Positions 2,224 to 19,040 are shown, counted from the first letter of the stretch. The stretch: DNA of 32,000 nucleotides from Xanthomonas campestris pv. campestris str. ATCC 33913 (GCF_000007145.1 NC_003902.1:400325-432324), one strand, 5' to 3'. The notes: generated from the sequence alone by a model not told the origin. Made by a program: numbers and translations.

Positions 2224-2316
2224 GCCTAACGTCGGAGTTGACCGGCGACCGGCGGAGAGGACCGTAGCGAAGCGAAGGACCGCCGTTGGGCGTCCGTGTC
2301 GAACGACCTGTTAGAC
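2224..2316 (-). repeat. attC site 2, divergent 93-bp type
   Basis: Starts GCCTAAC and ends GTTAGAC. The interior is unrelated to the array consensus. The GTTAGAC end matches the GTCTAA at the other end of its cassette (3554..3559). Confidence 0.6.
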
Positions 2317-2355
2317 CGCAGGCCCGACCTCAAAGAACCGTACCCCAATATAACT

Positions 2356-2811
2356 TCACGGCTTCGGTCCGGGCTGGGAAGCACACCAAGCATTCAGGGC
2401 CACTTTGCCGACACTGGCGAGGACGAGCGCAATGAGTGGGGCGATGACGGCTGCGGCAACGCTTAGCTGCGGTGCTATTGCCACCGCCATCGCGCTCACT
2501 ACGTATGTACGGGCAAGACCCTTTTCGCCGAAAAGCCCATCCCTTTCCTTCTTATATTTCTTGTCCCCGCAAAGAAAAGCGCGGATCTCCGAGCGCAAGT
2601 TATCCAGGAATGCCCCCTTGTCGCCGACGGGAGCCGACGCAGAGAAGCGGTAGGTGTTTTCAGCAGAGGCTGTAATCCAGGCTTGAGCGATATCCTCGTA
2701 CGATGAGCCGGCTGACCGCAACTCCTGGATAGCGGAGCGCTGGAACTCTGGAAGCTCACCGACCCATTTGTCCGGGTCGTCTTGCAGCAATGTGTCGATG
2801 GTGTCCGTCAT
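2356..2811 (-). CDS. hypothetical protein with a C-terminal hydrophobic anchor (151 aa), partner of the protease
   Basis: Its ATG lies 2 nt after the protease stop. Soluble N-terminal ~100 aa, then VVSAMAVAIAPQLSVAAAVIAPLIALVLASVG. Confidence 0.6.
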   Translation of the reverse strand: MTDTIDTLLQDDPDKWVGELPEFQRSAIQELRSAGSSYEDIAQAWITASAENTYRFSASAPVGDKGAFLDNLRSEIRAFLCGDKKYKKERDGLFGEKGLARTYVVSAMAVAIAPQLSVAAAVIAPLIALVLASVGKVALNAWCASQPGPKP

Positions 2812-2813
2812 AG

Positions 2814-3521
2814 CTAGTACATCTTAGAAAGGTACTCCGACGATACCGCGTGCGTCGTCTGATGAAGAGTGTGCGGGTCGACTCCCCCCAACGATATGCC
2901 GCCGCCGCCCCCGGGGGCATAGGAGCCGACGAGCACCCCTACCAGCCGACCATCAGTCTTTCTGAAGATCGGACTGCCAGACTGCCCAGGGCGTGCCTGA
3001 GTATTTAGGACCAGGTGTTTTGCCTTGATGCCGCCGGATGCGATTAGAACTCGCGCCCCAATCTCAGCGTCTTGTTGCGTAAGAACCATTCGGCAGTGAT
3101 CCGCGTGTGGGAAACCAAAACTGGCGACCTGCGTACCCACCGTTGCGTCATCTGCGCCACCTACCACCACACTCGACGTAGAGATTACATCTGCCTTAAG
3201 GACGGCGAGGTCATGAAACGGGTCAAGGGCGTGGATCTGCACAGGAAACGACCTGATGGAGGTGTCTCCGGTGTCTTGATAGTCGTGCAGTGCTGCGAGC
3301 GGCTTGAAGGCGAGGACAAGGTTCTGTCCCTCCGTCCCCGCCACGTGCGACGCTGTCGCGAAGAGACCGGGCTTGTCTAAAGCAAATGCAGTGCCCAAAA
3401 GCTGAACGCCCCCTGGCCCGTTGCGCCCAAGGGCAAAGACGAGATTCGAAACAGGACTGAAGTCGAACAACTGATGCCTCCAAAGATATGAATGCCACTG
3501 CTGAGTGTAAAGAAGGCCCAT
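2814..3521 (-). CDS. trypsin-like (S1/chymotrypsin-fold) serine protease, no signal peptide
   Basis: Internal ATG at 3521; the track ORF 2814..3749 runs upstream through the attC. Triad contexts are TASHV (His), DLAVLK (Asp) and GQSGSPIF (Ser). Confidence 0.7.
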   Translation of the reverse strand: MGLLYTQQWHSYLWRHQLFDFSPVSNLVFALGRNGPGGVQLLGTAFALDKPGLFATASHVAGTEGQNLVLAFKPLAALHDYQDTGDTSIRSFPVQIHALDPFHDLAVLKADVISTSSVVVGGADDATVGTQVASFGFPHADHCRMVLTQQDAEIGARVLIASGGIKAKHLVLNTQARPGQSGSPIFRKTDGRLVGVLVGSYAPGGGGGISLGGVDPHTLHQTTHAVSSEYLSKMY

Positions 3522-3553
3522 GCGGAGGGACGATACGGGGATTCTGTACTGCG

Positions 3554-3613
3554 GTCTAATGCTTGAATTAAGCCGAGTTGCGAAGCAACTTCGGCTTGAA
3601 TGAGTTGTTAGGC
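3554..3613 (-). repeat. attC site 3 (belongs to repeat cassette A)
   Basis: GTCTAAT...GTTAGGC ends, central stem GAGTTGC-GAA-GCAACTT, right arm GAATGAGTTGTTAGGC. Confidence 0.85.
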
Positions 3614-3893
3614 AGTGAGTGGCCGCAAAGGTTGGATGATGCAACCATGCTCCCCAGCACTGCCGCCTGGGCAGAGTGTGCCACAGCTTGCGGGATGGAG
3701 CTTGCCCCAGCGAAGCAGTGGCGCGTGACGCCACCGAAGCCAACTGCAACGAGCGCAGCGCGGGAACGACGTACCAAGGCGAAGCACCGACTTACCGCAA
3801 CCAGCAACGGTGATGACTGCTGTCCGGAGCCAACCGCATGCACACCTGCAAACTCACCGAAGCGGCGACCACCAACGCATTTGCTCCACCACG
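3614..3893. repeat. ORF-less 280-bp cassette family, copy A
   Basis: Aligns end to end with 4432..4711, 7223..7502, 8110..8390, 10539..10818, 11743..12023 and 12084..12363. Carries +1 and -1 indels relative to the other copies. Confidence 0.9.
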
Positions 3894-3982
3894 GCCTAAC
3901 GCCTGAATTAAGCCGGCCCGCCCGACCAACTGTCCGCTCATTGCCGTAACGATGCGGGCCCGGCTTGAATGAATTGTTAGGC
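3894..3982 (-). repeat. attC site 4, long (89 bp) variant
   Basis: GCCTAAC...GTTAGGC with the usual arms but an extended central stem (GCCGGCCCGC...GCGGGCCCGGC). Confidence 0.8.
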
Positions 3983-3992
3983 CTCAACCCAG

Positions 3993-4355
3993 TTACCGAT
4001 TGGCAGCCGCAGGGATGTAGCCATTTCTTACCCAGGAAGCGCCAAATCCAAAGACGCAGACAAACATGATGATCTTGTCTGCTATCAATGCGATCGGCGG
4101 AAGCGACCCTGATAAGAAATAAAAAATTAAGTTAATGATGAAAACGGATCCCATCGCTAGGATGAGCTGCAGCCACGGAATTTTTGGTGCAGCAAACTTC
4201 ATGCCGATAAGGCATACGCACAGCAATATTGGGAAAGCATAGCGCAGGAGACTACTGTCGCCATTGATCGCTCTATACCCCAGATAGACCATAGTGGCCG
4301 CAATAAGCAACGTAGCAATTCTGATTCTAATCGGTGAGAACCTTGGATCATTCAT
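3993..4355 (-). CDS. cassette-encoded small membrane protein (120 aa)
   Basis: ATG at 4355. Hydrophobic throughout, consistent with multiple TM segments. Markedly AT-rich compared with the core genes. Confidence 0.6.
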   Translation of the reverse strand: MNDPRFSPIRIRIATLLIAATMVYLGYRAINGDSSLLRYAFPILLCVCLIGMKFAAPKIPWLQLILAMGSVFIINLIFYFLSGSLPPIALIADKIIMFVCVFGFGASWVRNGYIPAAANR

Positions 4356-4371
4356 GATCTTCCCCTTTGAG

Positions 4372-4431
4372 GCCTAACGCCTGAGTTAAGCCGAGTTGCG
4401 AAGCAACTTCGGCTTGAATGAGTTGTTAGGC
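4372..4431 (-). repeat. attC site 5 (repeat cassette B)
   Basis: GCCTAAC...GTTAGGC, central stem GAGTTGC-GAA-GCAACTT. Confidence 0.88.
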
Positions 4432-4711
4432 AGTGAGTGGCCGCAAAGGTTGGATGGTGCAACCATGCTCCCCAGCACTGCCGCCTGGACCAAGTGTGCC
4501 ACAGCTTGCGGGAGGGAGCTTGCCCAGCGATGCAGCGGCGCGTGATGCCACCGAAGCCAACTGTACCGAGCGCAGCGCGATAACGACGTGCTAAGGCGAA
4601 GCGCCGAACTTACCGCAACCAGCAGCGGTGATGACTGCTGTCCGGAGCCAACCGCATGCATGCCTGCGAACTCACCGAAGCGGCGACCACCAACGCATTT
4701 GCTCCACCACG
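4432..4711. repeat. ORF-less 280-bp cassette family, copy B
   Basis: Full-length alignment with the other six copies. Confidence 0.9.
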
Positions 4712-4771
4712 GCCTAACGCCTGAATTAAGCCGAGTTGCGAAGCAACTTCGGCTTGAATGATTTGTTAGGC
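4712..4771 (-). repeat. attC site 6
   Basis: GCCTAAC...GTTAGGC, GAGTTGC-GAA-GCAACTT stem, right arm GAATGATTTGTTAGGC. Differs by one base from attC 12364..12423. Confidence 0.88.
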
Positions 4772-4781
4772 GGCTGATCCA

Positions 4782-5030
4782 TTAATGGACGCCGCTGGGC
4801 GGACCAATGAGGGAGTCAATTCCCTCATCCCGAATAGTGCGCAACGCCTCGTCGAGTGCGGCCTGGTCCGTTGCGAATAGGTCATCCCAGACGGTGGAGT
4901 TGTTGAACTCATCAACAGCCTCAAGGGTCCAGTCGGTGTCGAGCCCGCGATAGATCTCTAGGCGAACAGTGCGGCCATCGGTCGTGACGGAGCGGCATAG
5001 GGGCGAGGTAACAAGCTGATAGTTGTCCAT
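4782..5030 (-). CDS. hypothetical 82-aa cassette protein (copy 1 of 2)
   Basis: ATG at 5030. The protein is identical to the ORF at 12434..12682. Acidic and soluble-looking. No family recognised. Confidence 0.6.
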   Translation of the reverse strand: MDNYQLVTSPLCRSVTTDGRTVRLEIYRGLDTDWTLEAVDEFNNSTVWDDLFATDQAALDEALRTIRDEGIDSLIGPPSGVH

Positions 5031-5064
5031 GAAAAGTCTCAGTTGCGATTGTCTCTGTTCATCT

Positions 5065-5124
5065 GCCTAACGCCTGAATTAAGCCGACCCGCGAGGCGGG
5101 TTCGGCTTGAATGAATTGTTAGGC
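5065..5124 (-). repeat. attC site 7
   Basis: GCCTAAC...GTTAGGC, central stem GACCCGC-GAG-GCGGGTT. Confidence 0.88.
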
Positions 5125-5564
5125 GCGCCCCCAGAAGTTCCAGAAACTGCGCAAAGCTGCAGGATCTCATCTAGACCCTCCATTAGCCATTCTGGGTGAG
5201 GTAATGCCGTGGGTCCACCGTAGCGTAGAAAATGACGTTTGTGCTGATCGCTGAGGTTGGTAATCAATGCCCGAGTTTGGTTGCTGATTGTGACGAGGCC
5301 GGAAAGCATTTCTGCAAGCTTTGCAAGGTTGTGCCTAGTATCAACCGCTTTAAGTTCCTGCGAAGTAACGTCGCGTTTGAGCAAAGCAGCCTTTAGAAGA
5401 AGCTCAATCACATGCGAAGCCAGGTAATAGACTGGAAGACAGGCCATTTTTGCGGGTAGGCCATTTTTGTCTTTGTCCATATCTGCGAGAAGCACGTTGA
5501 TGCAGTGTCGAAAGGCTCCAGCGTGACCAAGGTACATAGCTCCGAGGAGATGAGTATCTTCCAT
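5079..5564 (-). CDS. possible HEPN-like helical protein (161 aa)
   Basis: The internal ATG at 5564 is the first Met inside the cassette; the track ORF extends to 5654 through the attC. The segment ELLLKAALLKRD...TRHNLAKLAEML resembles the HEPN helix pair. The ORF runs into the attC and stops at the TAA of AATTAAGCC. Confidence 0.45.
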   Translation of the reverse strand: MEDTHLLGAMYLGHAGAFRHCINVLLADMDKDKNGLPAKMACLPVYYLASHVIELLLKAALLKRDVTSQELKAVDTRHNLAKLAEMLSGLVTISNQTRALITNLSDQHKRHFLRYGGPTALPHPEWLMEGLDEILQLCAVSGTSGGAPNNSFKPNPPRGSA

Positions 5565-5567
5565 AGC

Positions 5568-5679
5568 ACCTAACGCTTGAATTAAGCCGAGTTGCGCAGT
5601 GGAGGCAACAACATGGCAAGCTTTATTTGCCATGTTGTTGCTGTAACGAAGCAAGTTCGGCTTGAATGAATTGTTAGGC
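5568..5679 (-). repeat. attC site 8, long (112 bp) variant
   Basis: ACCTAAC...GTTAGGC with the usual arms. The centre carries a perfect 15-bp hairpin (5605..5641, GCAACAACATGGCAA/TTGCCATGTTGTTGC). Confidence 0.75.
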
Positions 5680-5709
5680 GGTAATCAGTATGTATCAGCC
5701 TTCTATTTT

Positions 5710-6150
5710 CTATTTAGCGAGGCCAGACGCTAAAACACCTTTTCTCCCCTCTTCTTCGGAAACCAGCTCGACATTTGCCCCGCCCACGAAAACACCCATT
5801 TTGATGTATTGGCGGATGAAGTAGTTCATTCCTGATTGAACCGTGAACTTGAAATCATTATCGCTAAACTCGGACTCCGTTGACACTGTGTGCTCGCCAG
5901 GGTCGACCTGATTGTAGAAGTAGGTTTTGTTAGCGCTTTCCCCAAGCCGCTTGCCATCCATGTAGATGTCTTTTTTGAGCGCTTGACCCATAAAACTATT
6001 CCTGTACATGTAAACGCCAGCCTTTCCCGCAGGCGGTGGTGCGAAAGTCTTTAGCTCTGCATCTTGAGATGCAGGCGCCATAGGAACCGAAGCGCAACCG
6101 GAAGCCAGCAGAATGGCCGCCAACACCGCAACAAATTTTCCCCTCAACAT
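5710..6150 (-). CDS. lipoprotein, DUF2846-like
   Basis: Signal peptide with lipobox LASGC. The beta-rich body (GVYMYR...DGKRLG...PGEHTV) resembles the DUF2846 family. Confidence 0.65.
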   Translation of the reverse strand: MLRGKFVAVLAAILLASGCASVPMAPASQDAELKTFAPPPAGKAGVYMYRNSFMGQALKKDIYMDGKRLGESANKTYFYNQVDPGEHTVSTESEFSDNDFKFTVQSGMNYFIRQYIKMGVFVGGANVELVSEEEGRKGVLASGLAK

Positions 6151-6196
6151 GTGTATTCCTCTGTTTGTAATGGATCGAGATGAAGCTGGAACTGCC

Positions 6197-6256
6197 GCCT
6201 AACGGCTGAATTAAGCCGACTGGCGAAGCCAGTTCAGCTTGAATGAATTGTTAGGC
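6197..6256 (-). repeat. attC site 9
   Basis: GCCTAAC...GTTAGGC, central stem GACTGGC-GAA-GCCAGTT. Confidence 0.85.
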
Positions 6257-6739
6257 ATCAGGCTCCGATGCCCGTACGGCCACCACATCAAACCGCCACC
6301 GGTGATCCGGCGCCGGAGCTAGTGAATCACCCGCAAAGTACAAATACTCGTTGAAGTCCCGGGCTTGGCCAGGAGGAACCTTTATGTAGAGCGTTTCCCG
6401 CGTTTCCGCGACGACCACGCAGGGTGACGCGGCGGGCGGTTGTGGACACTCACTTACAGCGATCTCGAAATCGACTTGCGAAAGGGTGTGCTGCGGGGAC
6501 GTATTTGTCACCCGACCTCTGAAACGGTAGCTACCGTACTCAGAAAGAATCTTCGTGTTGGTCACTCTAACTTGAGCGGCAGTGATCCGTGAATTGGCGA
6601 GACGCTCCTGATGTTGGTCATACAGGTAGTAGCCTCCGCCACCCACTGCGGCTAGCAATAGCAGCACACCGGAAAACTTGCGGAAGCTCGCCGACACAAT
6701 TAGCAGGATGAGGACAACGATTGCAAAAAGCCACGCCAT
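6251..6739 (-). CDS. membrane-anchored hypothetical protein (162 aa)
   Basis: ATG at 6739. Two N-terminal hydrophobic helices followed by a beta-rich domain. The TAA stop lies inside the attC core. Confidence 0.6.
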   Translation of the reverse strand: MAWLFAIVVLILLIVSASFRKFSGVLLLLAAVGGGGYYLYDQHQERLANSRITAAQVRVTNTKILSEYGSYRFRGRVTNTSPQHTLSQVDFEIAVSECPQPPAASPCVVVAETRETLYIKVPPGQARDFNEYLYFAGDSLAPAPDHRWRFDVVAVRASEPDA

Positions 6740-6755
6740 GAACTTTCCCCCTGAT

Positions 6756-6815
6756 GCCTAACGCCTGAATTAAGCCGACCCGCGAAGCAGGTTCGGCTTG
6801 AATGAATTGTTAGGC
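6756..6815 (-). repeat. attC site 10
   Basis: GCCTAAC...GTTAGGC, central stem GACCCGC-GAA-GCAGGTT. Confidence 0.88.
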
Positions 6816-6820
6816 CTAGC

Positions 6821-7147
6821 CTATCGGAAGGTCTCAGCCTTGAGTTGTTGCGATGACGGGTCCGACCTTTTGCGAGCAAGCTCATTCTTGAGTGGGACTA
6901 GCACAGAATCGGGAAAGACTGCGCCTGGCATGTTTGAATCATCAATCCAGGCGCTGGCGAAGGCGGCCTTGTCTTCTCGGAAGTACGGTGCAATAGCGCC
7001 GATCTTCTTGTTCGCGATCTCGGCAGAGAGTACCGCAATTGCCGCGTTGCGTTGGAGCTGATGCACCTCAGTCTCAAGACGAAGCACACGGTAACTGAGG
7101 AAAAGGCAGGCGACCGCAAGGACGGTAAGAAGGACTTTGGATGCCAT
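6821..7147 (-). CDS. membrane-anchored hypothetical protein (108 aa)
   Basis: ATG at 7147. N-terminal TM helix (VLLTVLAVACLFLSY) followed by a helical segment. Confidence 0.55.
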   Translation of the reverse strand: MASKVLLTVLAVACLFLSYRVLRLETEVHQLQRNAAIAVLSAEIANKKIGAIAPYFREDKAAFASAWIDDSNMPGAVFPDSVLVPLKNELARKRSDPSSQQLKAETFR

Positions 7148-7162
7148 AACCTCTCCAGCTAG

Positions 7163-7222
7163 GCCTAACGCTTGAATTGAGCCGAGTTGCGAAGCAACTT
7201 CTGCTTGAATGAGTTGTTAGGC
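7163..7222 (-). repeat. attC site 11 (repeat cassette C)
   Basis: GCCTAAC...GTTAGGC, GAGTTGC-GAA-GCAACTT stem, slightly mutated arms. Confidence 0.85.
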
Positions 7223-7502
7223 AGTGAGTGGCCGCGAAGGTTGGATGGTGCAACCATGCTCCCCAGCACTGCCTCCTGGACCGAGTGTGCCACAGCTTGC
7301 GGGATGGAGCTTGCCCAGCGATGCAGCGGCGCGTGATGCCGCCGAAGCCAACTGCAACGAGCGCAGCGCGGGAACGGCGTACCAAGGCGAAGCACCGAAC
7401 TTACCGCAACCCGCAACGGTGATGACTGCTGTCCGGAGCCAACCGCATGCCCGCCTGCGAAATCACCGAAGCGGCAACCACCAACGCATTTGCTCCACCG
7501 CT
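7223..7502. repeat. ORF-less 280-bp cassette family, copy C
   Basis: Full-length alignment with the other six copies. Confidence 0.9.
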
Positions 7503-7562
7503 GCCTAACACCAGAGTTAAGCCGCGCCGCGAAGCGGCGTCGGCTTGGACGAATTGTTAGGC
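7503..7562 (-). repeat. attC site 12
   Basis: GCCTAAC...GTTAGGC, central stem GCGCCGC-GAA-GCGGCGT. Confidence 0.85.
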
Positions 7563-8030
7563 GCTAGGCCCGTTATCTACAAGCTTGACCGCCGCTAGCA
7601 CAGATTGGCCATGCCTCGCGATGACGATGACCGCAGCGAGGCTGAAAAGCGAAAAGACTAGTGCAACCCAAAGCGACATGTGCCACAGAAGTGCGCTGAA
7701 GCTAACGAAGAGTGTAATCAGCCCAGCGATAGCTAGCCCGGTAGCTACCCCAATGCTTCCCACTTTCCGAAAGTGAGCATAGGAGTCTGGCCCATACAGC
7801 AAGTATGGCTGTACGTACTGCCAGACAACTATCCAGATCGGGATGCCCAGAGCAGCTGCAGCAAACGAGACATGCAGTGCAACGGAGGTCAGCTTGACCT
7901 GAAGAAGAACCAGGACAATCGCGGCGGAGAAGCTGCCACCGCCAATGGCCGCACTCCGCATCTGACCTAAGTAGCTTTCTGAAATGCGGCGCGTGACAGG
8001 CGCTAGCGTCGTTTCGAAGTTCGTACTCAC
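7557..8030 (-). CDS. multi-pass membrane protein (157 aa)
   Basis: GTG start at 8030 with AGGAGG about 10 nt upstream. Four hydrophobic segments. The TAA stop lies in the attC core. Confidence 0.6.
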   Translation of the reverse strand: MSTNFETTLAPVTRRISESYLGQMRSAAIGGGSFSAAIVLVLLQVKLTSVALHVSFAAAALGIPIWIVVWQYVQPYLLYGPDSYAHFRKVGSIGVATGLAIAGLITLFVSFSALLWHMSLWVALVFSLFSLAAVIVIARHGQSVLAAVKLVDNGPSA

Positions 8031-8049
8031 CGCACACTTTCCTCCTAGC

Positions 8050-8109
8050 GCCTAACGCTTGAATTAAGCCGAGTTGCGAAGCAACTTCGGCTTGAATGAG
8101 TTGTTAGGC
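8050..8109 (-). repeat. attC site 13 (repeat cassette D)
   Basis: GCCTAAC...GTTAGGC, GAGTTGC-GAA-GCAACTT stem. Confidence 0.88.
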
Positions 8110-8390
8110 AGTGAGTGGCCGCGAAGTTGGGATGGTGCAACCATGCTCCCCAGGACTGCCGCCTGGGAAGAGTGTGCCACAGCTTGCGGGATGGAGCTTT
8201 CCCAGCGATGCAGCGGCGCGTGATGCCACCGAAGCCAAGTGCACCGAGCGCAGCGCGGGAACGACGTGCCAAGGCGAAGCACCGAACTTACCGCAACCAG
8301 CAACCGTGATGACTGCTGTCCGGAGCCAACCGCATGCATGGCCTGCGAACTCACCGAAGCGGTAACCACCAACGCATTTGCTCCACCACG
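8110..8390. repeat. ORF-less cassette family, copy D (281 bp)
   Basis: Full-length alignment with the other copies, with one extra base in the variable patch after CCGCATGCATG. Confidence 0.9.
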
Positions 8391-8450
8391 GCCTAACGAC
8401 GAAATTAAGCCGAACCGGGTAGCGGTTTCGGCTTGAATGAATTGTTAGGC
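8391..8450 (-). repeat. attC site 14
   Basis: GCCTAAC...GTTAGGC, central stem GAACCGG-GTA-GCGGTTT. Confidence 0.85.
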
Positions 8451-8891
8451 CCCAAGCCGACGCAGCCTGCCCCACGACTGTCGGAGCCCCACAAGGTGCA
8501 CCAGACCAATGGCGAGACAGATCGCCGAGCTCACGACCCAGAACGTGAGGCTGTTGCCAGGGAAGTAGGTCATGACCGGGACGAACGCCACACCGCGAAG
8601 GATATAAACACCTGTGACCGCTGTAAGGACTGTTCGACGTAGCGGAAACGGCCGGAATACGCCCGCGGCCGAGAGTGCGTACGCACCCCAGGTGGCCAAG
8701 ACGGTGGCGATCGCGAGCGTGACCACTGTGGGGTACCAGCCGCCTTCAGCGTGAAGTTGCGCCATCTGCTCTCCGGCGCCCAAGAGGCGGAAGAGCGGCG
8801 CGCCCACTACCAAGCACGCAAGATGTGTCAGTGCTGCAACGCCACTCAGTGCGCCGCCGACGATGAGGAGCTTGTTAGTTGGGCCTTCCAC
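8445..8891 (-). CDS. multi-pass membrane protein (148 aa)
   Basis: GTG start at 8891 with GGGAG 5 nt upstream. Four hydrophobic segments. The TAA stop lies in the attC core. Confidence 0.6.
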   Translation of the reverse strand: MEGPTNKLLIVGGALSGVAALTHLACLVVGAPLFRLLGAGEQMAQLHAEGGWYPTVVTLAIATVLATWGAYALSAAGVFRPFPLRRTVLTAVTGVYILRGVAFVPVMTYFPGNSLTFWVVSSAICLAIGLVHLVGLRQSWGRLRRLGA

Positions 8892-8906
8892 GCGATCTCC
8901 CTTGCG

Positions 8907-8966
8907 GCCTAACGTCTGAATTAAGCCGCGCCGCGAAGCGGCGTCGGCTTGAATGAACTGTTAGGC
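8907..8966 (-). repeat. attC site 15
   Basis: GCCTAAC...GTTAGGC, central stem GCGCCGC-GAA-GCGGCGT. Confidence 0.88.
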
Positions 8967-9044
8967 AGATGCGCTCGCAACCCCGACGCCTCTGCCGAAG
9001 AGCTAGCATGCCACAGCTGAGCGGACTTGGAGCTTGCCCTCAGC

Positions 9045-9073
9045 TTGACCCAAGCCATTGGCGGCGCTAGATT
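9045..9073 (+). promoter_or_regulatory. sigma70-like promoter inside the SymE-like cassette
   Basis: TTGACC (9045..9050), 17-nt spacer, TAGATT (9068..9073). Confidence 0.5.
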
Positions 9074-9079
9074 TGCTGC

Positions 9080-9137
9080 AGGTGCTGAACACACCTTCGT
9101 AGGCGGAAGCCACTCCCGTTAGCCAAGTGGCTTTTTT
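9080..9137 (+). ncRNA. putative ~58-nt sRNA or terminated leader
   Basis: Lies between the promoter at 9045..9073 and the intrinsic terminator at 9108..9137. No ORF. Ends are predicted only. Confidence 0.4.
9108..9137 (+). terminator. rho-independent terminator
   Basis: 7-bp stem AGCCACT/AGTGGCT with an 11-nt loop, followed by TTTTTT. Confidence 0.65.
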
Positions 9138-9157
9138 GTGCCCCGCCTTTTTCTATG

Positions 9158-9235
9158 GCCGGGTGGCGCGCAGCTATGCAATACCCGAAAGGGGAAAACT
9201 GCGGGCGGCCCTACGACCGTGTTCAAGCACCCGGC
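9158..9235 (+). promoter_or_regulatory. structured 5' leader of the SymE-like gene
   Basis: Nested helices: GCCGGGTG (9158..9165) pairs with CACCCGGC (9228..9235), GCGCAG pairs with CTGCG, and CCC-GAAA-GGG caps the structure. Confidence 0.35.
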
Positions 9236-9283
9236 CGCCTCTCTGAACAGGAGGCGAAATAGAACGAATCGTAGGAGTACACC

Positions 9284-9505
9284 GTGACTGCCAAGAAGAC
9301 CCCGTCACCGAAGCCTCGCTATCTTACGATTGGCTACCAGGTTTACGAAAGCCGACACAAAGATCGGGAATGCCGCTACCGACCACGACAAGTGCCGTTC
9401 CTAAGGTTGAGTGGCGATTGGCTATCCGCAGCTGGCTTCGCGGTTGGTCAGAAAGCGCGAATACAAGTGACCGACCAAGGCATTGTGATCTTGCCTGAAG
9501 GCTGA
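9284..9505 (+). CDS. SymE-like (AbrB/SpoVT-fold) type I toxin family protein, inverted relative to the array
   Basis: GTG start with GTAGGAG upstream. LTIGY...LRLSGDWLSAAGFAVGQKARIQVTDQGIVILPEG parallels the E. coli SymE core VTVGY...[30 protein letters not shown] as I recall it. Confidence 0.65.
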   Translation: MTAKKTPSPKPRYLTIGYQVYESRHKDRECRYRPRQVPFLRLSGDWLSAAGFAVGQKARIQVTDQGIVILPEG

Positions 9506-9514
9506 GCTAGATAA

Positions 9515-9557
9515 GCTGCGGGCAAAGACTGTACATGCCCGCGGCATTTTGCTTTTT
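9515..9557 (+). terminator. rho-independent terminator of the SymE-like gene
   Basis: 10-bp stem GCTGCGGGCA/TGCCCGCGGC followed by ATTTTGCTTTTT. Confidence 0.7.
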
Positions 9558-9560
9558 GAT

Positions 9561-9620
9561 GCCTAACGCCTGAACTAAGCCGCGCCGTGAAGCGGCGTCG
9601 GCTTGAATGAATTGTTACGC
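9561..9620 (-). repeat. attC site 16
   Basis: GCCTAAC...GTTACGC, central stem GCGCCGT-GAA-GCGGCGT. Confidence 0.85.
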
Positions 9621-9624
9621 CATT

Positions 9625-10458
9625 CTACGAGAGCAAGTCAGCAGCCTCGTAGCCGGCCTTGGTGATCTGGAACATCTCGCGCTTGTGGTTCAAGGCGTTG
9701 ATGTAACCCGCATTCTCGAGCTCGTCGAGCGCGGATGTCCAGATAGCGCGCGAGCGGTCACTGCCTTCTTCAATTACGTTCTTCCCATTGACCTGAATAG
9801 CGCGACCGCCGATGTATGAAAGGTTCATGATGTGACCACTCAAATCTGATGCGCATTCTTTAAGCAGATATGAAGCCTCTTTTGATAGGCGCACTAAGTT
9901 GGTGGCAGGTTCAATGTCCGCAGTGAAGTTCCCGGCATCGCTCTGGAAGTGCGCATCATTGTTTAGCTTGAGCTGGAGCTGCCGGTAAAGCTTTGTCCGA
10001 AATTCTTGGAGGTCTGCATATGACTCGTACAGGCCGCGGGTTTGGCAAGACCGCTTGAACTCTTGGAGGCTTGCGTACTGCTCTGGCTCGATGCTCTCTG
10101 GAACAACTGGGGCTGATGAAAAGTAGAGCATTGTTGGCCTGCCGGCTTTGATGTGCTCCTCAATCTCTTCCACGCTCCCGCTAGCGTAGTCGCCGGTTGG
10201 AGTGCCGATTCGCGTCCAGAAAACTCCTATAAGCAAGTCGCAGTTATTAAGAACCTGCTTGTTGATTATCGCTTGAGGCCTGTCACCCATTTCAGGAACG
10301 GCGTGCGTCTCCCAACCAGCAGGCAGGAGCACGCGATGAGACCTTCTTGAATTGACAATATTCCATTCGGCTAGAAGCTCTCTGACGATGGCTCGTTCGG
10401 TTGAGACGTCGCCTGGAGAAGCAATCATCACTTCATAAACTGTCGCTGCATGACTCAT
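9625..10458 (-). CDS. TIR-like/DUF4062-like (nucleoside 2-deoxyribosyltransferase-like) N-terminal domain protein with a winged-helix-like C-terminus (277 aa)
   Basis: ATG at 10458 with GGAG upstream. N-terminal pattern VMIASPGDVSTER...CDLLIGVFWTRIGTPTG...SGSVEEIEEHIKAGRPTMLYFS. C-terminal segment AIWTSALDELENAGYI...FQITKAGYEAADLL. The CDS itself is secure; the domain call comes from motif memory and is less secure. Confidence 0.6.
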   Translation of the reverse strand: MSHAATVYEVMIASPGDVSTERAIVRELLAEWNIVNSRRSHRVLLPAGWETHAVPEMGDRPQAIINKQVLNNCDLLIGVFWTRIGTPTGDYASGSVEEIEEHIKAGRPTMLYFSSAPVVPESIEPEQYASLQEFKRSCQTRGLYESYADLQEFRTKLYRQLQLKLNNDAHFQSDAGNFTADIEPATNLVRLSKEASYLLKECASDLSGHIMNLSYIGGRAIQVNGKNVIEEGSDRSRAIWTSALDELENAGYINALNHKREMFQITKAGYEAADLLS

Positions 10459-10478
10459 TGGAACTCCGAAAGATCATG

Positions 10479-10538
10479 GCCTAACGCTTGAATTAAGCCG
10501 AGTTGCGAAGCAACTTCGGCTTGAATGAGTTGTTAGGC
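10479..10538 (-). repeat. attC site 17 (repeat cassette E)
   Basis: GCCTAAC...GTTAGGC, GAGTTGC-GAA-GCAACTT stem. Confidence 0.88.
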
Positions 10539-10818
10539 AGTGAGTGGCCGCAAAGGTTGGATGGTGCAACCATGCTCCCAGCACTGCCGCCTGGATCAAG
10601 TTTGCCACAGCTTGCGAGATGGAGCTTGCCCAGCGATGCAGCGGCGCGTGATGCCACCGAAGCCAACTGTACCGAGCGCAGCGCGGGAACGACGTGCCAA
10701 GGCGAAGCACCGAACTTACCGCAACCAGCAACCGTGATGACTGCTGTCCGGAGCCAACCGCATGCATGGCCTGCGAACTCACCGAAGCGGCGACCACCAA
10801 CGCATTTGCTCCATCACG
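10539..10818. repeat. ORF-less 280-bp cassette family, copy E
   Basis: Full-length alignment with the other copies, with one deletion (CTCCC-AGC) and one insertion (CATGG). Confidence 0.9.
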
Positions 10819-10878
10819 GCCTAACGCCTGAATTAAGCCGACCCGCGAAGCGGGTTCGGCTTGAATGAATTGTTAGCG
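10819..10878 (-). repeat. attC site 18
   Basis: GCCTAAC...GTTAGCG, central stem GACCCGC-GAA-GCGGGTT. Confidence 0.85.
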
Positions 10879-11327
10879 CCCGCGCCGGGCAAGTACACAG
10901 GCGTACCGAGCGCGGCAGCGTAATGTGACTGAGATGAGAACGGCCAGTACGCCATGTCGCCGGCGGACCGTAGGCGACGGAAGTAGATGCGTCCTGCTAA
11001 TCCAAGTGTCAGCAAGTTGCCAATAGTGAGAAGCGCAGACTGGCCGCGGGAGAGAACCGGCCAAAGGTAGGCAAGGCCTGACTTGAGAAAGAGGACGCAG
11101 CGAACTGCTGCGTCCCTTTGAGCTTGCGACAGCCTGTCGGCACCGACCAGGCGGTGCTCTCGAAGATCACAGTAGAGCAGCCATAGGAATTGGTTGTAGA
11201 TCTCTCGGATCGCCGGATCCGCCGACTTTGGCACCCCATCGTCGAACTGGAAATTTGTGATACGAGCGCCAATGAGCCAGCGCGTTGACTCAGCCAAAGT
11301 TGCTCGAGCTTGCTGATCAATTGCCAT
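10833..11327 (-). CDS. hypothetical cassette protein (164 aa)
   Basis: ATG at 11327. The ORF reads into its attC and stops at the TAA of AATTAAGCC. No family recognised. Confidence 0.55.
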   Translation of the reverse strand: MAIDQQARATLAESTRWLIGARITNFQFDDGVPKSADPAIREIYNQFLWLLYCDLREHRLVGADRLSQAQRDAAVRCVLFLKSGLAYLWPVLSRGQSALLTIGNLLTLGLAGRIYFRRLRSAGDMAYWPFSSQSHYAAALGTPVYLPGAGANNSFKPNPLRGSA

Positions 11328-11331
11328 AGGG

Positions 11332-11391
11332 CGCTAACGCCTGAATTAAGCTGAGTTGCGAAGCAACTTCGGCTTGAATGAATTGTTATAC
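11332..11391 (-). repeat. attC site 19
   Basis: CGCTAAC...GTTATAC, GAGTTGC-GAA-GCAACTT stem. The non-consensus ends match those of the neighbouring cassettes. Confidence 0.85.
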
Positions 11392-11673
11392 GCCGCGTAG
11401 CATCTGAGTGATTGCCTGTGACGCAACGGCAATAGCTGCTAAGACGGCACCTGCTGAGTTCCATCTGACCTGCGCCTCCATAGTCTCTTTCAACTCAGCA
11501 CCGAAGAGTTCAAGGCCACCAAGGTTTGGCTTTTCGCCAGTCTTCTCGGCACGTTTTCGGCGCTTTTCCAGTGCGGCCTCCCGGGTCACTTTCACGTTGC
11601 TAGCATAGAGCCAAGCTCCAGCAGACATGAAGCCTGCAATTACGGAGAGCCACGTGAGTATCGTCACCAGCAT
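11386..11673 (-). CDS. small two-helix membrane protein (95 aa)
   Basis: ATG at 11673. Hydrophobic N- and C-terminal helices flank a charged middle (EKRRKRAEKTGEK). The TAA stop lies in the attC core. Confidence 0.5.
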   Translation of the reverse strand: MLVTILTWLSVIAGFMSAGAWLYASNVKVTREAALEKRRKRAEKTGEKPNLGGLELFGAELKETMEAQVRWNSAGAVLAAIAVASQAITQMLRGV

Positions 11674-11682
11674 GATTGCACC

Positions 11683-11742
11683 GTATAACGCCAGAATTAA
11701 GCCGAGTTGCGAAGCAACTTCGGCTTGAATGAGTTGTTAGGC
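11683..11742 (-). repeat. attC site 20 (repeat cassette F)
   Basis: GTATAAC...GTTAGGC, GAGTTGC-GAA-GCAACTT stem. Confidence 0.85.
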
Positions 11743-12023
11743 AGTGAGTGGCCGCGAAGGTTGGATGGTGCAACCCTGCTCCCCAGCACTGCCGCCTTGA
11801 CCGAGTGTGCCACAGCTTGCGGGATGGAGCTTGCCTCAGCGATGCAGCGGCGCGTGATGCCGCCGAAGCCAATTGCAACGAGCGCAGCGCGGGAACGACG
11901 TGCCAAGGCGAAGCACCGAACTTACCGCAACCCGCAACGGTGATGACTGCTGTCCGGAGCCAACCGCATGTACGCCTGCGAACTCACCGAAGCAGCAACC
12001 ACCAACGCATTTGCTCCACCACG
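11743..12023. repeat. ORF-less cassette family, copy F (281 bp)
   Basis: Full-length alignment with the other copies, with one inserted base (GCCTCAGCG versus GCCCAGCG). Confidence 0.9.
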
Positions 12024-12083
12024 GCCTAACGCCTGAGTTAAGCCGAGTTGCGAAGCAACTTCGGCTTGAATGAGTTGTTAGGC
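12024..12083 (-). repeat. attC site 21 (repeat cassette G)
   Basis: GCCTAAC...GTTAGGC, GAGTTGC-GAA-GCAACTT stem. Confidence 0.88.
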
Positions 12084-12363
12084 AGAGAGTGGCCGCGAAG
12101 GTTGGATGGTGCAACCATGCTCCCCAGCACTGCCGCCGGGAACGAGTGTGCCACAGCTTGCGGGATGGAGCTTGCTCAGCGATGCAGCGGCGCGTGATGC
12201 CACCGAAGCCAACTGCAACGAGCGCAGCGCGGGAACGACGTGCCAAGGCGAAGTACCGAACTTACCGCAACCAGCAACGGTGATGACCTCTGTCCGGAGC
12301 CAACCGCATGCACGCCCGCGAACTCATCGAAGCGGCGACCACCAACGCATTTGCTCCACCACG
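12084..12363. repeat. ORF-less 280-bp cassette family, copy G
   Basis: Full-length alignment with the other copies. Directly adjacent to copy F (tandem cassettes). Confidence 0.9.
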
Positions 12364-12423: not shown

Positions 12424-12433
12424 GGCTGATCCA

Positions 12434-12682
12434 TTAATGGACGCCGCTGGGCGGACCAATGAGGGAGTCAATTCCCTCATCCCGAATAGTGCGCAACGCC
12501 TCGTCGAGTGCGGCCTGGTCCGTTGCGAATAGGTCATCCCAGACGGTGGAGTTGTTGAACTCATCAACAGCCTCAAGGGTCCAGTCGGTGTCGAGCCCGC
12601 GATAGATCTCTAGGCGAACAGTGCGGCCATCGGTCGTGACGGAGCGGCATAGGGGCGAGGTAACAAGCTGATAGTTGTCCAT
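12434..12682 (-). CDS. hypothetical 82-aa cassette protein (copy 2 of 2, attI-proximal)
   Basis: The protein is identical to the ORF at 4782..5030. It occupies the first cassette position next to attI. Confidence 0.6.
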   Translation of the reverse strand: MDNYQLVTSPLCRSVTTDGRTVRLEIYRGLDTDWTLEAVDEFNNSTVWDDLFATDQAALDEALRTIRDEGIDSLIGPPSGVH

Positions 12683-12716
12683 GAAAAGTCTCAGTTGCGA
12701 TTGTCTCTGTTCGTCT

Positions 12717-12745
12717 GCCTAACTAATATTGGACCGCCTAAAAGC
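12717..12745 (-). other. attI region with crossover core GCCTAA|C
   Basis: This is the last GCCTAAC of the array (12717..12723) and has no attC partner arm. A second GCCTAA lies 19 bp away (12736..12741). It sits directly upstream of intI. Confidence 0.6.
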
Positions 12746-12816
12746 GGTGTTGCGCCAAGTATCGACGAAGGCCGGATGGCTGGGAAGGGGGAATTCCTAT
12801 TTCGTAATAGTGACTT

Positions 12817-12867
12817 GTCGGATAGCAGCCGACAATCTTGACGTCAATGCTGGTTGCGTTATCCGAC
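12817..12867. promoter_or_regulatory. dyad-symmetric element, possible back-to-back intI and cassette promoters
   Basis: The palindrome TTGACGTCAA (12838..12847) gives a TTGACG -35 hexamer on both strands. Each is followed after 16-17 nt by TATCCG, from the inverted repeat GTCGGATA (12817..12824) / TATCCGAC (12860..12867). The -10 hexamers are weak. Confidence 0.3.
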
Positions 12868-12911
12868 GTTTGAGCCGGCGTATGAGTTACACCCGTGACG
12901 ATGCAGGCGTA

Positions 12912-13895
12912 ATGACGCGTCTGACCCCCAAGCTGTTGGATCAGGTCCGTGGTCGGCTGCGGCTTCGCCACTACAGCCTGCGCACCGAGCAGGCGTATGT
13001 GGGCTGGATCCGACGCTTCATCCTGGCCAACGGTAAACGGCATCCAGCGCAGATGGGGCAGGCAGAGGTCGAGGCGTTTCTCACCGACCTGGCGACGCGG
13101 GGCCAGGTGTCGGCCGGCACGCAGAATCAGGCGCTGGCGGCACTGCTGTTCCTGTATCGCGAGATCCTGGGCCTGGAGTTGCCCTGGATGGAGAACCTGG
13201 TGCGCGCCAAGCGACCGCGGCGCATTCCAGTGGTGCTCTCGGTCGAGGAGGTGACGCGCCTGCTGACGATGCTGGAGGGGGCGTGTCGGCTGATGGCGGG
13301 GCTGCTCTACGGCAGCGGGATGCGGTTGCTGGAATGCCTGCGGTTGCGGATCAAGGATGTGGACATGGTGCGTTGCGAGATCGTGGTGCGCGACGGAAAA
13401 GGCGGCAAGGATCGGCGGGTGCCGCTGCCGCGCAGCCTGCGAGGGGAATTAATGCAGCAGCGCGAGCGGGCGCTGCTGCTGCATGCCGCTGATCTCGCCG
13501 AGGGAGCAGGACAGGTGTTCCTGCCGCATGCGTTGGCGCGCAAGTATCCCTCGGCCGATGTCGAGCCCGGCTGGCAGTATCTGTTCCCCGGCGCGCGTCG
13601 ATCGGTGGATCCGCGCAGTGGCCGAGTTGGTCTGCATCACGTATCGGAGGAGATCCGGCAGCGTGCGGTACATGCGGCACGGCGCCGTGCGGGGATCGAC
13701 AAGCCGGCGACCTGCCACACCCTGCGGCATTCGTTCGCCACGCATCCGCTGGAGGCCGGCCACGATATCCGCACTGTGCAGGAGCTGTTGGGCCACAAGG
13801 ATGTGGCAACCACGCAGATCTACACGCATGTGCTGGGGCGCGGTGCGTCGGCGGTGCGCAGCCCGCTGGATGGGCTGCATCTCAGCGGCGGGTGA
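12912..13895 (+). CDS. intI: integron integrase IntI (tyrosine recombinase), apparently full length
   Basis: 327 aa from the ATG at 12912 (alternative ATG at 12882; the track TTG at 12729 overlaps attI). It aligns along its whole length with the IntI1/VchIntIA pattern as I recall it: [19 protein letters not shown] (Arg), GKGGKDR (Lys), [10 protein letters not shown] (His, Arg), LGH, IYTHV (Tyr). The IntI-specific insert segment ARKYP...DPRSG is also present. Confidence 0.9.
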
Positions 13896-13909: not shown

Positions 13910-14046
13910 AGAGCAGCGATCAAAACGACTGCGCAGCCGCCAGGCGTGCGCGGCCGGTGCCCGGAGTCGGCATTCCCCCGTACGCGCCGGTTCCGAGCGC
14001 TGTCCTCCCACCTGACGGCTGCTCGCTAAGTTTTGTTAGCGGCTCT
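13910..14046 (-). repeat. ~140-bp imperfect-palindromic intergenic element, copy 2, inverted
   Basis: Reverse-complement alignment with 51..191. Lies between the intI stop and the ilvD stop. Confidence 0.75.
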
Positions 14047-14162: not shown

Positions 14163-16001
14163 TCAGCCGTCCAGCATCGCCTTGTCGCGTACCGCGCCCT
14201 TGTCCGCACTGGTCGCCAGCAACGCGTACGCCTTCAGCGCGGTGGTGACTTTGCGTGGGCGCACTTCCACCGGCTTCCAGCCCTTGGCGTCCTGCTCGGT
14301 GCGGCGTGCGGCCAGTTCTTCGTCGGAGACGAGCAGGTCGATTGAGCGCTTGGGGATATCGATGAGAATCTTGTCGCCGTTGCGCACCAGGCCGATCGCA
14401 CCGCCCGCGGCGGCTTCCGGCGAGGCGTGGCCGATCGACAGACCCGAGGTGCCGCCGGAGAAGCGGCCGTCGGTGAGTAGTGCGCAGTGTTTGCCCAGGC
14501 CCTTGGATTTCAGGTAGCTGGTGGGGTAGAGCATCTCCTGCATGCCGGGGCCGCCCTTGGGGCCTTCGTAGCGGATCACCACCACATCGCCGGCTTTGAC
14601 TTCGTCGGCGAGGATGCCCTTGACCGCCGAATCCTGGCTCTCGTAGACGCGTGTGTTGCCTTCGAAGACATGGATGGATTCGTCCACGCCGGCGGTCTTC
14701 ACCACGCAGCCATCGCGCGCGATATTGCCGTACAGCACCGCCAGGCCGCCTTCCTGCGAGAACGCGTGTGCGACATCGCGGATGCAGCCTTCGCTGCGAT
14801 CGGTATCCAGGGTGTCCCAGCGCGTGGCCTGGCTAAACGCAATCTGCGTGGGAATGCCGGCCGGGCCGGCCTTGTAGAACGTATGCACCTTGTCGTCGTC
14901 GACCTGGGTGACATCCCATTGCGCGATGGCGTCGGCCAGCGTGCGTGTGTGCACGGTGGCTGCGTTGGTGTGCAGCAAGCCGCCACGTGCCAGTTCGCCG
15001 AGGATGGACATGATGCCGCCGGCACGGTGCACGTCTTCGATGTGGTACTTGGGCGTGTTCGGCGCGACCTTGCACAGCTGCGGCACACGCTTGGACAGGC
15101 GGTCGATATCGCGCATGCCGAACGGCACTTCGCCTTCCTGTGCGGCAGCCAGCAAATGCAGGATGGTGTTGGTGGAGCCGCCCATGGCGATGTCCAGCGT
15201 CATCGCGTTTTCGAACGCTTCGAAGGTGGCGATGCCGCGCGGCAGTGCGGTGGGGTCTTCGCCGCCATACCAGCGATGGCACAGCTCCACCGCCACGCGC
15301 CCGGCGCGCAGGAACAGCTGCTCGCGGTCGGCATGCGTGGCCACCACGGTGCCATTGCCGGGCAATGAAAGACCCAGCGCTTCGGTGAGGCAGTTCATCG
15401 AGTTGGCGGTGAACATGCCCGAGCACGAGCCGCACGTGGGGCAGGCGCTGCGTTCGAACTCGGCGACCTTTTCATCGGAGGCGCTGTCGTCGGCGGCGAT
15501 CACCATCGCGTCGATCAGATCCAGATTATGGTCGGCCAGCTTGGTCTTGCCGGCTTCCATCGGCCCGCCGGAGACGAACACCGTCGGGATGTTGAGGCGC
15601 AAGGCGGCCATCAACATGCCGGGGGTGATCTTGTCGCAGTTGGAAATGCACACCAGCGCGTCGGCGCAATGCGCGTTGACCATGTACTCGACCGAGTCGG
15701 CGATGATCTCGCGGCTGGGCAGCGAGTACAGCATGCCGTCGTGGCCCATCGCGATACCGTCGTCCACGGCGATGGTGTCGAACTCCTTGGCTACGCCGCC
15801 GACACGTTCGATCTCACGTGCCACGAGTTGCCCAAGATCCTTCAGGTGCACATGCCCGGGAACGAACTGCGTGAACGAATTGGCGATGGCAATGATCGGC
15901 TTGTGGAAATCGCCATCCTTCATGCCGGTGGCGCGCCAGAGTGCGCGGGCGCCCGCCATGTTGCGGCCGTGGGTGGAGGTCTTTGAGCGGTATTCGGGCA
16001 T
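14163..16001 (-). CDS. ilvD: dihydroxy-acid dehydratase
   Basis: 612 aa starting [53 protein letters not shown], with a typical IlvD length. Confidence 0.97.
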
Positions 16002-16257
16002 GGCGGGATCGACAACGTGAGCGAGCGATGGCTGGCAATTAGACCGCGCCAGGACTGTTGCTGCTGCAACCGTCGCGGTGCGTTCCGGTGATCTCGCACG
16101 GTAGCACGCAGCTGCCGGGTGAACAGACGGCCAAACGTGACTGCCACTGGGGCGATGACATCAAACGTCGAGCACGCCACCCCGCTGCGCCAAACGGTTC
16201 ATCCATGTGCAGCAATAGCGCAGGCACTCGCAACTGCACGCGAGCGGCCGCGGTTTA

Positions 16258-16400
16258 GAGTGGCTAACAAAACGTAGCGAGCAGTTGTCAGGTGGGTGCG
16301 GACGGCGCGGAGGAACCGGAATGTACGTGGGTACATGAGGATTCCGAGCACCGGCCGCGCCCGCCTGGCGGCTGCGCAGTAGTTTTTTGATAGCTGCTCT
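16258..16400 (+). repeat. ~140-bp imperfect-palindromic intergenic element, copy 3, forward
   Basis: Aligns along its length with 51..191. Lies between the ilvD start and the YkgJ-like gene. Confidence 0.75.
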
Positions 16401-18897: not shown

Positions 18898-19040
18898 TAA
18901 CAGCTGACAAAACTAGTGCGCGACCGCCAGGCGGGCGCGTCCGGTTAGCGGAATCGGCATGTGCCGCTCGTACGCTCTGATTCTGGGCACATAGTCCATG
19001 ACTACCTGACGACTGTTCGCCACGTCTTGTCAGCGGCTCT
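18898..19040 (-). repeat. ~140-bp imperfect-palindromic intergenic element, copy 4, inverted and more diverged
   Basis: CAGCTGACAAAACTAGTGCGCGACCGCCAGGCGGGCGCG...ACCTGACGACTGTTCGCCACGTCTTGTCAGCGGCTCT aligns with the reverse complement of 51..191. Confidence 0.6.

Follow-up and report, generated by a model that had tools for sequence, protein, structure and literature searches.

The 32,000-nucleotide stretch of the Xanthomonas campestris pv. campestris str. ATCC 33913 genome analysed here (NC_003902.1:400325-432324, called the window below) contains an integron in which one cassette without an open reading frame (ORF) occurs seven times. The repeated unit, read on the minus strand, consists of a 280-bp body and, behind it, an attC site of its own (58-60 bp). 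It is non-coding and belongs to a multi-copy family found in several species. The explanation favoured here, at a probability of roughly 0.4, is that of a self-propagating empty cassette, in which the sequences flanking attC would act in cis on recombination mediated by the integrase IntI. Conservation in the family is mosaic, and its phylogeny is star-like. Among the three explanations offered by an earlier reading of this DNA (the original prediction), the selfish empty cassette fits the data best, and the structured non-coding RNA is not supported.

A repeated cassette without a gene

An integron cassette is delimited by attC sites whose cores are R'' (RYYYAAC) and R' (GTTRRRY), and it has one attC at its 3' end. 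Every copy shows this organization, with GCCTAAC...GTTAGGC on the sense strand, and the cassettes lie beside attI and a divergently transcribed intI (Table 1). Between 1763 and 12425, 21 attC sites were counted, thus the family occupies 7 of 21 cassettes and not 7 of 22 slots, as first proposed. The copies are spread along the array (slots 2, 3, 6, 10, 12, 18 and 20). The cassette ORFs of the array are on the minus strand. Because the array reads on this strand, the constant attC subtype (GAGTTGCGAAGCAACTT ... GAATGAGTTGTTAGGC; stem GAGTTGC-GAA-GCAACTT, arm GAATGAGTTGTTAGGC) precedes each copy on the plus strand. The original prediction had placed it after each copy; behind A, C, D and E, the attC at that place belongs to another type. 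As read from the sequence, the L box of attC has its extrahelical G on the plus strand, which makes this the recombining bottom strand. The attC sites closely resemble each other throughout the array. Two of them are unusually long, at 3896-3982 (87 nt) and 5570-5679 (110 nt), the others being uniformly 58-60 nt.

The seven 340-bp units are 92-94% identical, far beyond chance, and the mean column identity is 96% when the copies are aligned with their flanking attC. All seven are present where they had been located from the sequence. Pairwise, they differ by 11-21 substitutions, and the 20 differing positions reported between B and G correspond to 20 substitutions without any indel. The single-base indels described in A, D, E and F were likewise recovered, paired in A and E, with one insertion shared by D and E. 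The paired +1/-1 indels were considered as a sign of length or frame constraint, which is ruled out by the common occurrence of unpaired +/-1 indels and by the shared insertion. Each copy is a separate cassette bounded by attC sites, and not part of a segmental duplication, in line with the original prediction. The two cassettes with an 82-aa ORF that lie next to copies of the element are 99.4% identical, whereas the 280-bp copies beside them are only 93% identical, a difference of 7%.

The family extends beyond the window. A scan of isolates with an invariant 21-mer, using one genome per species, gave matches in eight genomes: Xanthomonas sp. Leaf148, X. prunicola, X. sp. 3075, X. arboricola, X. 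hortorum, X. sp. LMG 31884, X. codiaei and the organism of the window. A second motif, used to scan metagenomes, added 31 further contigs. With an nhmmer profile, 71 full-length matches (65 distinct) were found at 71-95% identity, in at least eight species and in metagenomes. Xanthomonas sp. 3075 has at least 20 copies among the 43 attC-bearing matches in the pieces fetched. ORF calls overlapping the element are also on record for X. campestris, X. cannabis and two X. citri pathovars. Tandem runs are common, reach 3-4 copies and may mix subfamilies (for example, at 6772, 7112 and 7452 of contig L005).

Two main 280-bp subfamilies can be distinguished, and relatives with bodies of 238, 190 and 189 bp share only the ends with them. 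Shorter family members are found on contigs L041, L043, L019 and L018. Two copies truncated at the 5' end (L027:3856-4079 and L040:2708-2878) are joined to unrelated sequence that resembles, by eye, the end of an insertion sequence. A portable 3' module common to unrelated cassettes was also considered. This is mostly ruled out, as the copies on L027 and L040 look truncated by insertion sequences, the other candidates are short family members, and the symE cassette of the array is the only weakly similar one.

No frame of the element is under coding constraint. Column entropy is flat across the codon phases (26.6/25.5/29.4), as is GC content, and the 69 differences between the two subfamily consensuses are distributed 22/24/23 by phase. 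The Nei-Gojobori dN/dS ranges from 0.58 to 1.43 over all six frames. It equals 1.02 in sense frame 0, the most gene-like one, which begins at GGAG-ATG in some copies and there extends to the TAA of attC. No Pfam family was found for any frame. An exhaustive phmmer search of 1.84 billion cluster representatives returned eight proteins. The seven that were looked up are all singleton clusters, four of them named 'hypothetical' or 'uncharacterized' from Xanthomonas and three unnamed. The cassette-sense strand is A-poor in all copies (A 13-15%, T 20-23%; GC of the family 63%), because of which two or three sense frames are nearly stop-free without any coding.

The earlier view that no reading frame is maintained is thus borne out by codon-phase counts, dN/dS, Pfam and protein search. 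The plus-strand frame of 64 codons ending in TGATGA that it described is present, with the extra stops of copies A and B at 85 and 211. A conserved protein of which the copies would be pseudogenes, a check that it had proposed, was not found in these searches. DUF1488, a multi-copy cassette named in PMC12444791, was considered as well and is ruled out by the absent Pfam match of the element.

Conservation around attC and proposed self-propagation

The conservation of the family is uneven along the element. Between the two subfamily consensuses, identity is 13/13 (100%) over the 5' terminal 13 nt of the body and drops to 67% over body columns 22-198. It rises to 85% over the whole 3' module, the attC-proximal part of the body, with 97% over its columns 199-230, and to 96.5% over attC. 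The relatives with 189-238-bp bodies retain the 5' end and the 3' module around unrelated middles. A nearly invariant core with two variable patches had been described, which holds among the seven window copies; family-wide, this core is the most divergent part. As the body ends meet around attC in the excised circle, the conserved unit forms a single uninterrupted stretch of about 170 nt, with the recombination site at its centre. Its R'' box is invariant in 30 copies.

Recent changes follow a different pattern. In the isolate-only set, which is free of the second search pattern, private singletons per site amount to 0.42 for the 5' body, 0.34 for the 3' module and 0.29 for attC. They are nearly uniform, with a ratio of 0.81 between 3' module and 5' body (p=0.35). 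In the star-like phylogeny, most copies have the consensus-like copy L010:545-894 as nearest neighbour, among them four of the five window copies compared. The window copies are 4-6.5% apart from each other and about 4% from this copy. Taken together, the uneven divergence of the lineages, the uniform decay by private mutations, the star-like tree, the high copy number and the presence in several species form the classical signature of a non-autonomous mobile family, with selection on transmissibility and not on the individual resident copies. The element has the traits of such trans-mobilised families (multiple copies, star-like relationships, conserved cis ends and near-neutral decay), its mobility being presumed from them.

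The integron is active, or was so until recently, and its intI ORF is intact. The cassette with the 82-aa ORF, for which no Pfam match was found, is present twice, at 4772-5066 and, in the attI-proximal slot, at 12424-12718, with only two differences in 360 nt. A copy this similar in the attI-proximal slot is evidence of recent IntI-mediated copying in an active integron. Metagenome contig L038 is 99.5-99.8% identical to the window over the shared segments, and the array between them differs (window 2239-11686). Two other contigs, L024 and L030, are without copy D and the adjacent 148-aa cassette (window 8111-8900). Such different arrays between near-identical flanks indicate that the cassette content turns over quickly.

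The cassette may thus be pictured as a non-autonomous passenger. IntI would excise it as a circle and reinsert it at attI, and copies would accumulate because of their low cost to the host. Selection would act mainly on the needs of recombination, i.e., on attC and the flanking body parts in the circle (about 93 nt on the 3' side and 13 nt on the 5' side). Resident copies would then decay almost neutrally. In a concrete version, the body ends would lengthen the attC stem in the circle, as suggested by imperfect inverted repeats in the subfamily of the window. The circle junction folds computationally into a longer hairpin. On the bottom strand, the terminal 36-nt arms pair better than shuffled ones in this subfamily (z -2.6), in L043 (-4.0), in L004:1525 (-3.1) and in L041 (-2.0).

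Several observations weigh against this explanation. Subfamily 2 (z -0.4), L018 (0.0), L020 (-0.3) and L022:4353 (+1.1) lack the terminal complementarity, and no compensatory changes were found in it. The attC subtype of the element also serves other cassettes of the array. The test on private mutations has low power, and the mosaic conservation could also stem from gene conversion near attC. Cis action of the conserved flanks and amplification by efficient recapture are both inferred, including the recombination efficiency itself. Furthermore, the two subfamilies hold exactly 280 bp despite 33% divergence over 175 nt, a stretch without net indel. This kept length hints at a constraint on the body, which pure mobility does not explain and which fits no reading well. 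Finally, most of 29 gene-less Vibrio cassettes have sense-strand promoter activity that software was unable to predict (PMC11014356).

A stronger form of the self-propagating cassette is possible, and is put forward more tentatively. The element would be a parasite of the integron, whose body ends form an extended recombination site that raises its own capture by IntI, and which multiplies in arrays and spreads between Xanthomonas species. If so, no selfish cassette would have been described before it, and it would be the counterpart, in a site-specific recombination system, of a miniature inverted-repeat transposable element (MITE). The usual view of an integron array is that of a repository of adaptive genes. 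Here, a single non-coding cassette takes up a third of one array, and at least 20 slots in another genome, which suggests that part of an array may instead reflect recombination dynamics or regulation. If the conserved flanks raise recombination, they would be cis determinants of capture beyond attC, and the cassette would be a natural high-efficiency substrate for the study of IntI. Whichever reading holds, repeat homologies of 340 bp can drive rearrangement of the array.

Table 1. Positions in the window of the seven copies, their conserved parts and the neighbouring genes.
Feature	Position	Strand	Remarks
Copy A	3554..3893	-	own attC 3554-3613 and 280-bp ORF-less body 3614-3893; -1 and +1 single-base indels; nhmmer 405 bits
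Conserved 3' module, copy A	3614-3706	-	lowest ~93 nt of the copy A body
Copy B	4372..4711	-	attC 4372-4431, body 4432-4711; 20 substitutions relative to copy G
Copy C	7163..7502	-	attC 7163-7222, body 7223-7502; identical to metagenome copy L024:2957-3306
Copy D	8050..8390	-	attC 8050-8109, body 8110-8390 (281 bp, +1); absent with the next cassette from related contigs L024 and L030
Copy E	10479..10818	-	attC 10479-10538, body 10539-10818 (+1/-1)
Copy F	11683..12023	-	attC 11683-11742, body 11743-12023 (281 bp, +1); in tandem with copy G; 0.4% from L038:12693-13043
Copy G	12024..12363	-	attC 12024-12083, body 12084-12363; second cassette from attI; identical to L038:13034-13383
3' module, copy G as representative	12084..12176	-	~93 nt of the body next to attC; interior part with the highest conservation across subfamilies
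Small conserved hairpin, copy G	12098..12118	-	ATGGTTG / CACCATC / CAACCTT; stem kept, loop varies in the family
Conserved 5' body terminus CGTGGTGGAGCAA, copy G	12351..12363	-	13/13 identical between subfamily consensuses; abuts attC in the excised circle
attI core site GTTAGGC	12717..12723	-	start of the array; read from the sequence
intI	12729..13895	+	uninterrupted integron integrase ORF; PF00589 5.8e-32, PF13495 2.6e-27
ilvD	14163-16001	-	adjoins intI

Elsewhere in the window, Rfam matches to the sX9 sRNA (small RNA) were found at four positions (50-179, 16257-16386, 13970-14041 and 18959-19035). The two with the highest scores fall within the copies of a 130-nt direct repeat (92% identity) that bracket the integron and ilvD over about 16 kb.

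Alternative explanations

The best-surviving alternative is a cis-regulatory cassette, in which the 3' module would be a sense-strand promoter that restarts transcription of cassettes far from the promoter Pc. Such a promoter would be non-canonical, possibly a mobile sigma-54-type one. This is doubtful, and would, if true, explain the expression of distal cassettes in Xanthomonas, a plant pathogen. The position of the module is suggestive, as the interior block with the highest conservation is found 35-95 nt upstream of attC, facing the next cassette, and the copies are dispersed along the array. Promoter activity has been suggested in PMC12444791 for a recurring empty Xanthomonas cassette, and the Vibrio activity mentioned above (PMC11014356) is of this kind, unpredictable in silico. 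No sigma-70-like promoter and no intrinsic terminator were found in a consensus scan of the seven copies on both strands, nor, by inspection, a TANNNT hexamer on either strand of the module consensus. Because the Vibrio promoters escaped software, a missing prediction is weak evidence.

A GG-N10-GC element with TTGC is conserved in the module (GGGGAGCA[T/C]GGTTGC). It is a weak sigma-54-like match, with 8 of 12 consensus positions, of which about four are expected by chance per 32 kb (estimate), and part of its conservation is imposed by the search pattern. It is no more than a lead. Tandem runs of up to 3-4 copies would be odd for a promoter, and private mutations are not clearly depleted in the module.

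The plant-inducible promoter (PIP) box of HrpX, TTCGB-N15-TTCGB upstream of a -10-like element, has no exact match in any family unit. One-mismatch sites in these units are limited to 8325-8349 (copy D) and 10753-10777 (copy E), where they result from the shared +1 insertion and are not a feature of the family. Over the window, 19 PIP-box sites compare with 17.1 by chance, which is no excess. As a separate observation, attC sites on the cassette-sense strand are often near-PIP sequences (TTCAT-N15-TTCGC), for instance at 7529-7553, 1789-1813 and 6782-6806, and one is a perfect TTCGB-N15-TTCGB.

It is unlikely that the element encodes a non-coding RNA on the minus (cassette-sense) strand, be it an independent sRNA or a structured part of the Pc transcript with a conserved hairpin. 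This hairpin, A-X-GGTTG / loop / CAACC-Y-T, has a conserved 7-bp stem and a loop of 6-7 nt in the tabulated copies, or about 11 nt by eye in L043. Its second pair, X:Y, covaries, being T.T in the subfamily of the window and C-G in subfamily 2 and others, with A-T in L020 and G.T or T.G in a few copies. That the loop varies in length speaks for a folded strand and not for a double-stranded operator. For the 3' module, RNAalifold gave a z of -2.07 in sense versus +0.26 in antisense. The body length kept between the subfamilies also favours an RNA, as does the presence of a known sRNA, sRNA-Xcc1, in the same integron.

The other structure tests argue against an RNA. Over the whole body, with 35 diverse copies compared to column shuffles, RNAalifold reached a z of only -1.4 in sense and -0.96 in antisense. 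Single-sequence folds were not more stable than dinucleotide shuffles (z -0.7 to +2.0). In a 63-sequence alignment, two pairs of the body are changed on both sides, compared to four in the 12-bp attC stem. This stem, the positive control, carries compensatory changes across the family. The total of six two-sided pairs was reached by 62 of 500 shuffles. No Rfam family matched within any copy at gathering thresholds. Relaxed to E<=10, the best match had 15.9 bits and the families were unrelated eukaryotic ones. The lack of a predicted promoter or terminator, and bodies of 189-280 bp with unrelated middles, are also at odds with an RNA.

The original prediction had listed a structured RNA as one possibility, with some substitutions compatible only with the plus sense. 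The plus strand corresponds to the antisense values above and gives no fold signal. Wobble changes had been quoted for this strand; the few in the conserved hairpin lean to the minus strand, a lean confounded by sequence ascertainment. Strand assignment from these changes was abandoned, the metagenome search pattern having had a fixed 5' arm. Two of the checks that it had suggested gave no support, as the element matches none of the Rfam families, sRNA-Xcc1 and sX9 included, and covariation of the body on the alignment of homologues is not significant.

It is also improbable that the copies are inert filler, i.e., relics without a role in cis or trans, whose mosaic would come from recent ancestry together with gene conversion or homologous exchange near similar attC sites. 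The nearly uniform private mutations, the frequent unpaired +/-1 indels and the close similarity of all attC sites of the array would fit such relics, as would the 5'-truncated copies on L027 and L040, apparently produced by insertion sequences (by eye). Against this, the family persists at high copy number in at least eight species, and the R'' box never varies in 30 copies. Moreover, relatives with unrelated middles retain both the 5' 13 nt and the 3' module, for which conversion alone is not a ready explanation.

A decayed protein-coding cassette of about 90 aa in sense frame 0, with a GGAG-ATG start in some copies, is effectively refuted: the frame has no stop between the cassette start and the R'' TAA in 8 of 35 window and isolate copies and in the subfamily-2 consensus, and sporadic 'hypothetical protein' calls are on record, but the A-poor sense strand alone accounts for open frames, dN/dS and codon phases are those of non-coding DNA, frameshifts are frequent, no protein family is known from the searches above, and a +1/-1 pair shifts the frame for about 10 codons between the subfamilies while the nucleotides are conserved.

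Comparison with known systems

The statement that nothing explains the element was too strong. One sentence of PMC12444791 (Microb Genom 2025) mentions a recurring 'empty' cassette, which may be found several times in an array of Xanthomonas and for which promoter activity is raised as a possibility. Like the present element, that cassette is ORF-less, recurs across Xanthomonas species, can reach several copies per array and belongs to the same ilvD-linked integron. The two are almost certainly the same, matched by description and not by sequence, and the existence of the element is therefore not new. In contrast to the present analysis, that paper gives no sequence, anatomy, subfamilies, coding test or structure test, and its supplements add nothing. 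What is added here is the corrected orientation, the proof of a non-coding nature, the subfamilies and size variants, the attC-centred mosaic conservation, the hairpin and the evolutionary signature.

As a class, ORF-less cassettes are established (PMC11014356, Vibrio; PMC6557892, oral metagenome). The gene-less cassettes of the Vibrio superintegron (Blanco et al. 2024, PMC11014356) and those of PMC6557892 resemble the element in the absence of a gene, in their location in chromosomal integron arrays and in the role proposed at the nucleic-acid level. They are diverse, AT-rich and mostly single, with measured promoter activity. The present element, in comparison, is one family of 63% GC that occupies a third of an array, without a sigma-70-like site, and is known here from its sequence.

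Closer at hand, the sRNA-Xcc1/symE cassette (RF02221; window 8967-9562) is an example of a non-coding function borne by a cassette in the same integron. It differs in being on the plus strand, with its own promoter-like site and terminator and an Rfam match of 84 bits, whereas the 280-bp element has no family. This cassette is reversed in the array and holds sRNA-Xcc1 at 9157-9244 and the SymE toxin ORF (PF08845) at 9284-9505. Upstream are a sigma-70-like sequence, TTGACC-17-TAGATT (9045-9073), and, by eye, a hairpin with a T-run at about 9110-9140, which would give an extra transcript of about 60 nt before the annotated sRNA. About 35 nt (TGCCACAGCT..GGAGCTTGCCC) next to its attC (8967-9039) weakly resemble the 3' module of the family, with 54 bits in nhmmer, little above an attC-only match.

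The closest parallel for a self-propagating empty cassette is found in MITE-like and SINE-like (short interspersed nuclear element) non-autonomous elements. Like these, the cassette family has no coding capacity, would be mobilised in trans, is multi-copy and star-like, and combines conserved ends and a variable middle with decaying residents. The difference lies in the mechanism, as the present element would move as a circle by site-specific recombination between attC and attI, and its 'ends' flank a single recombination site.

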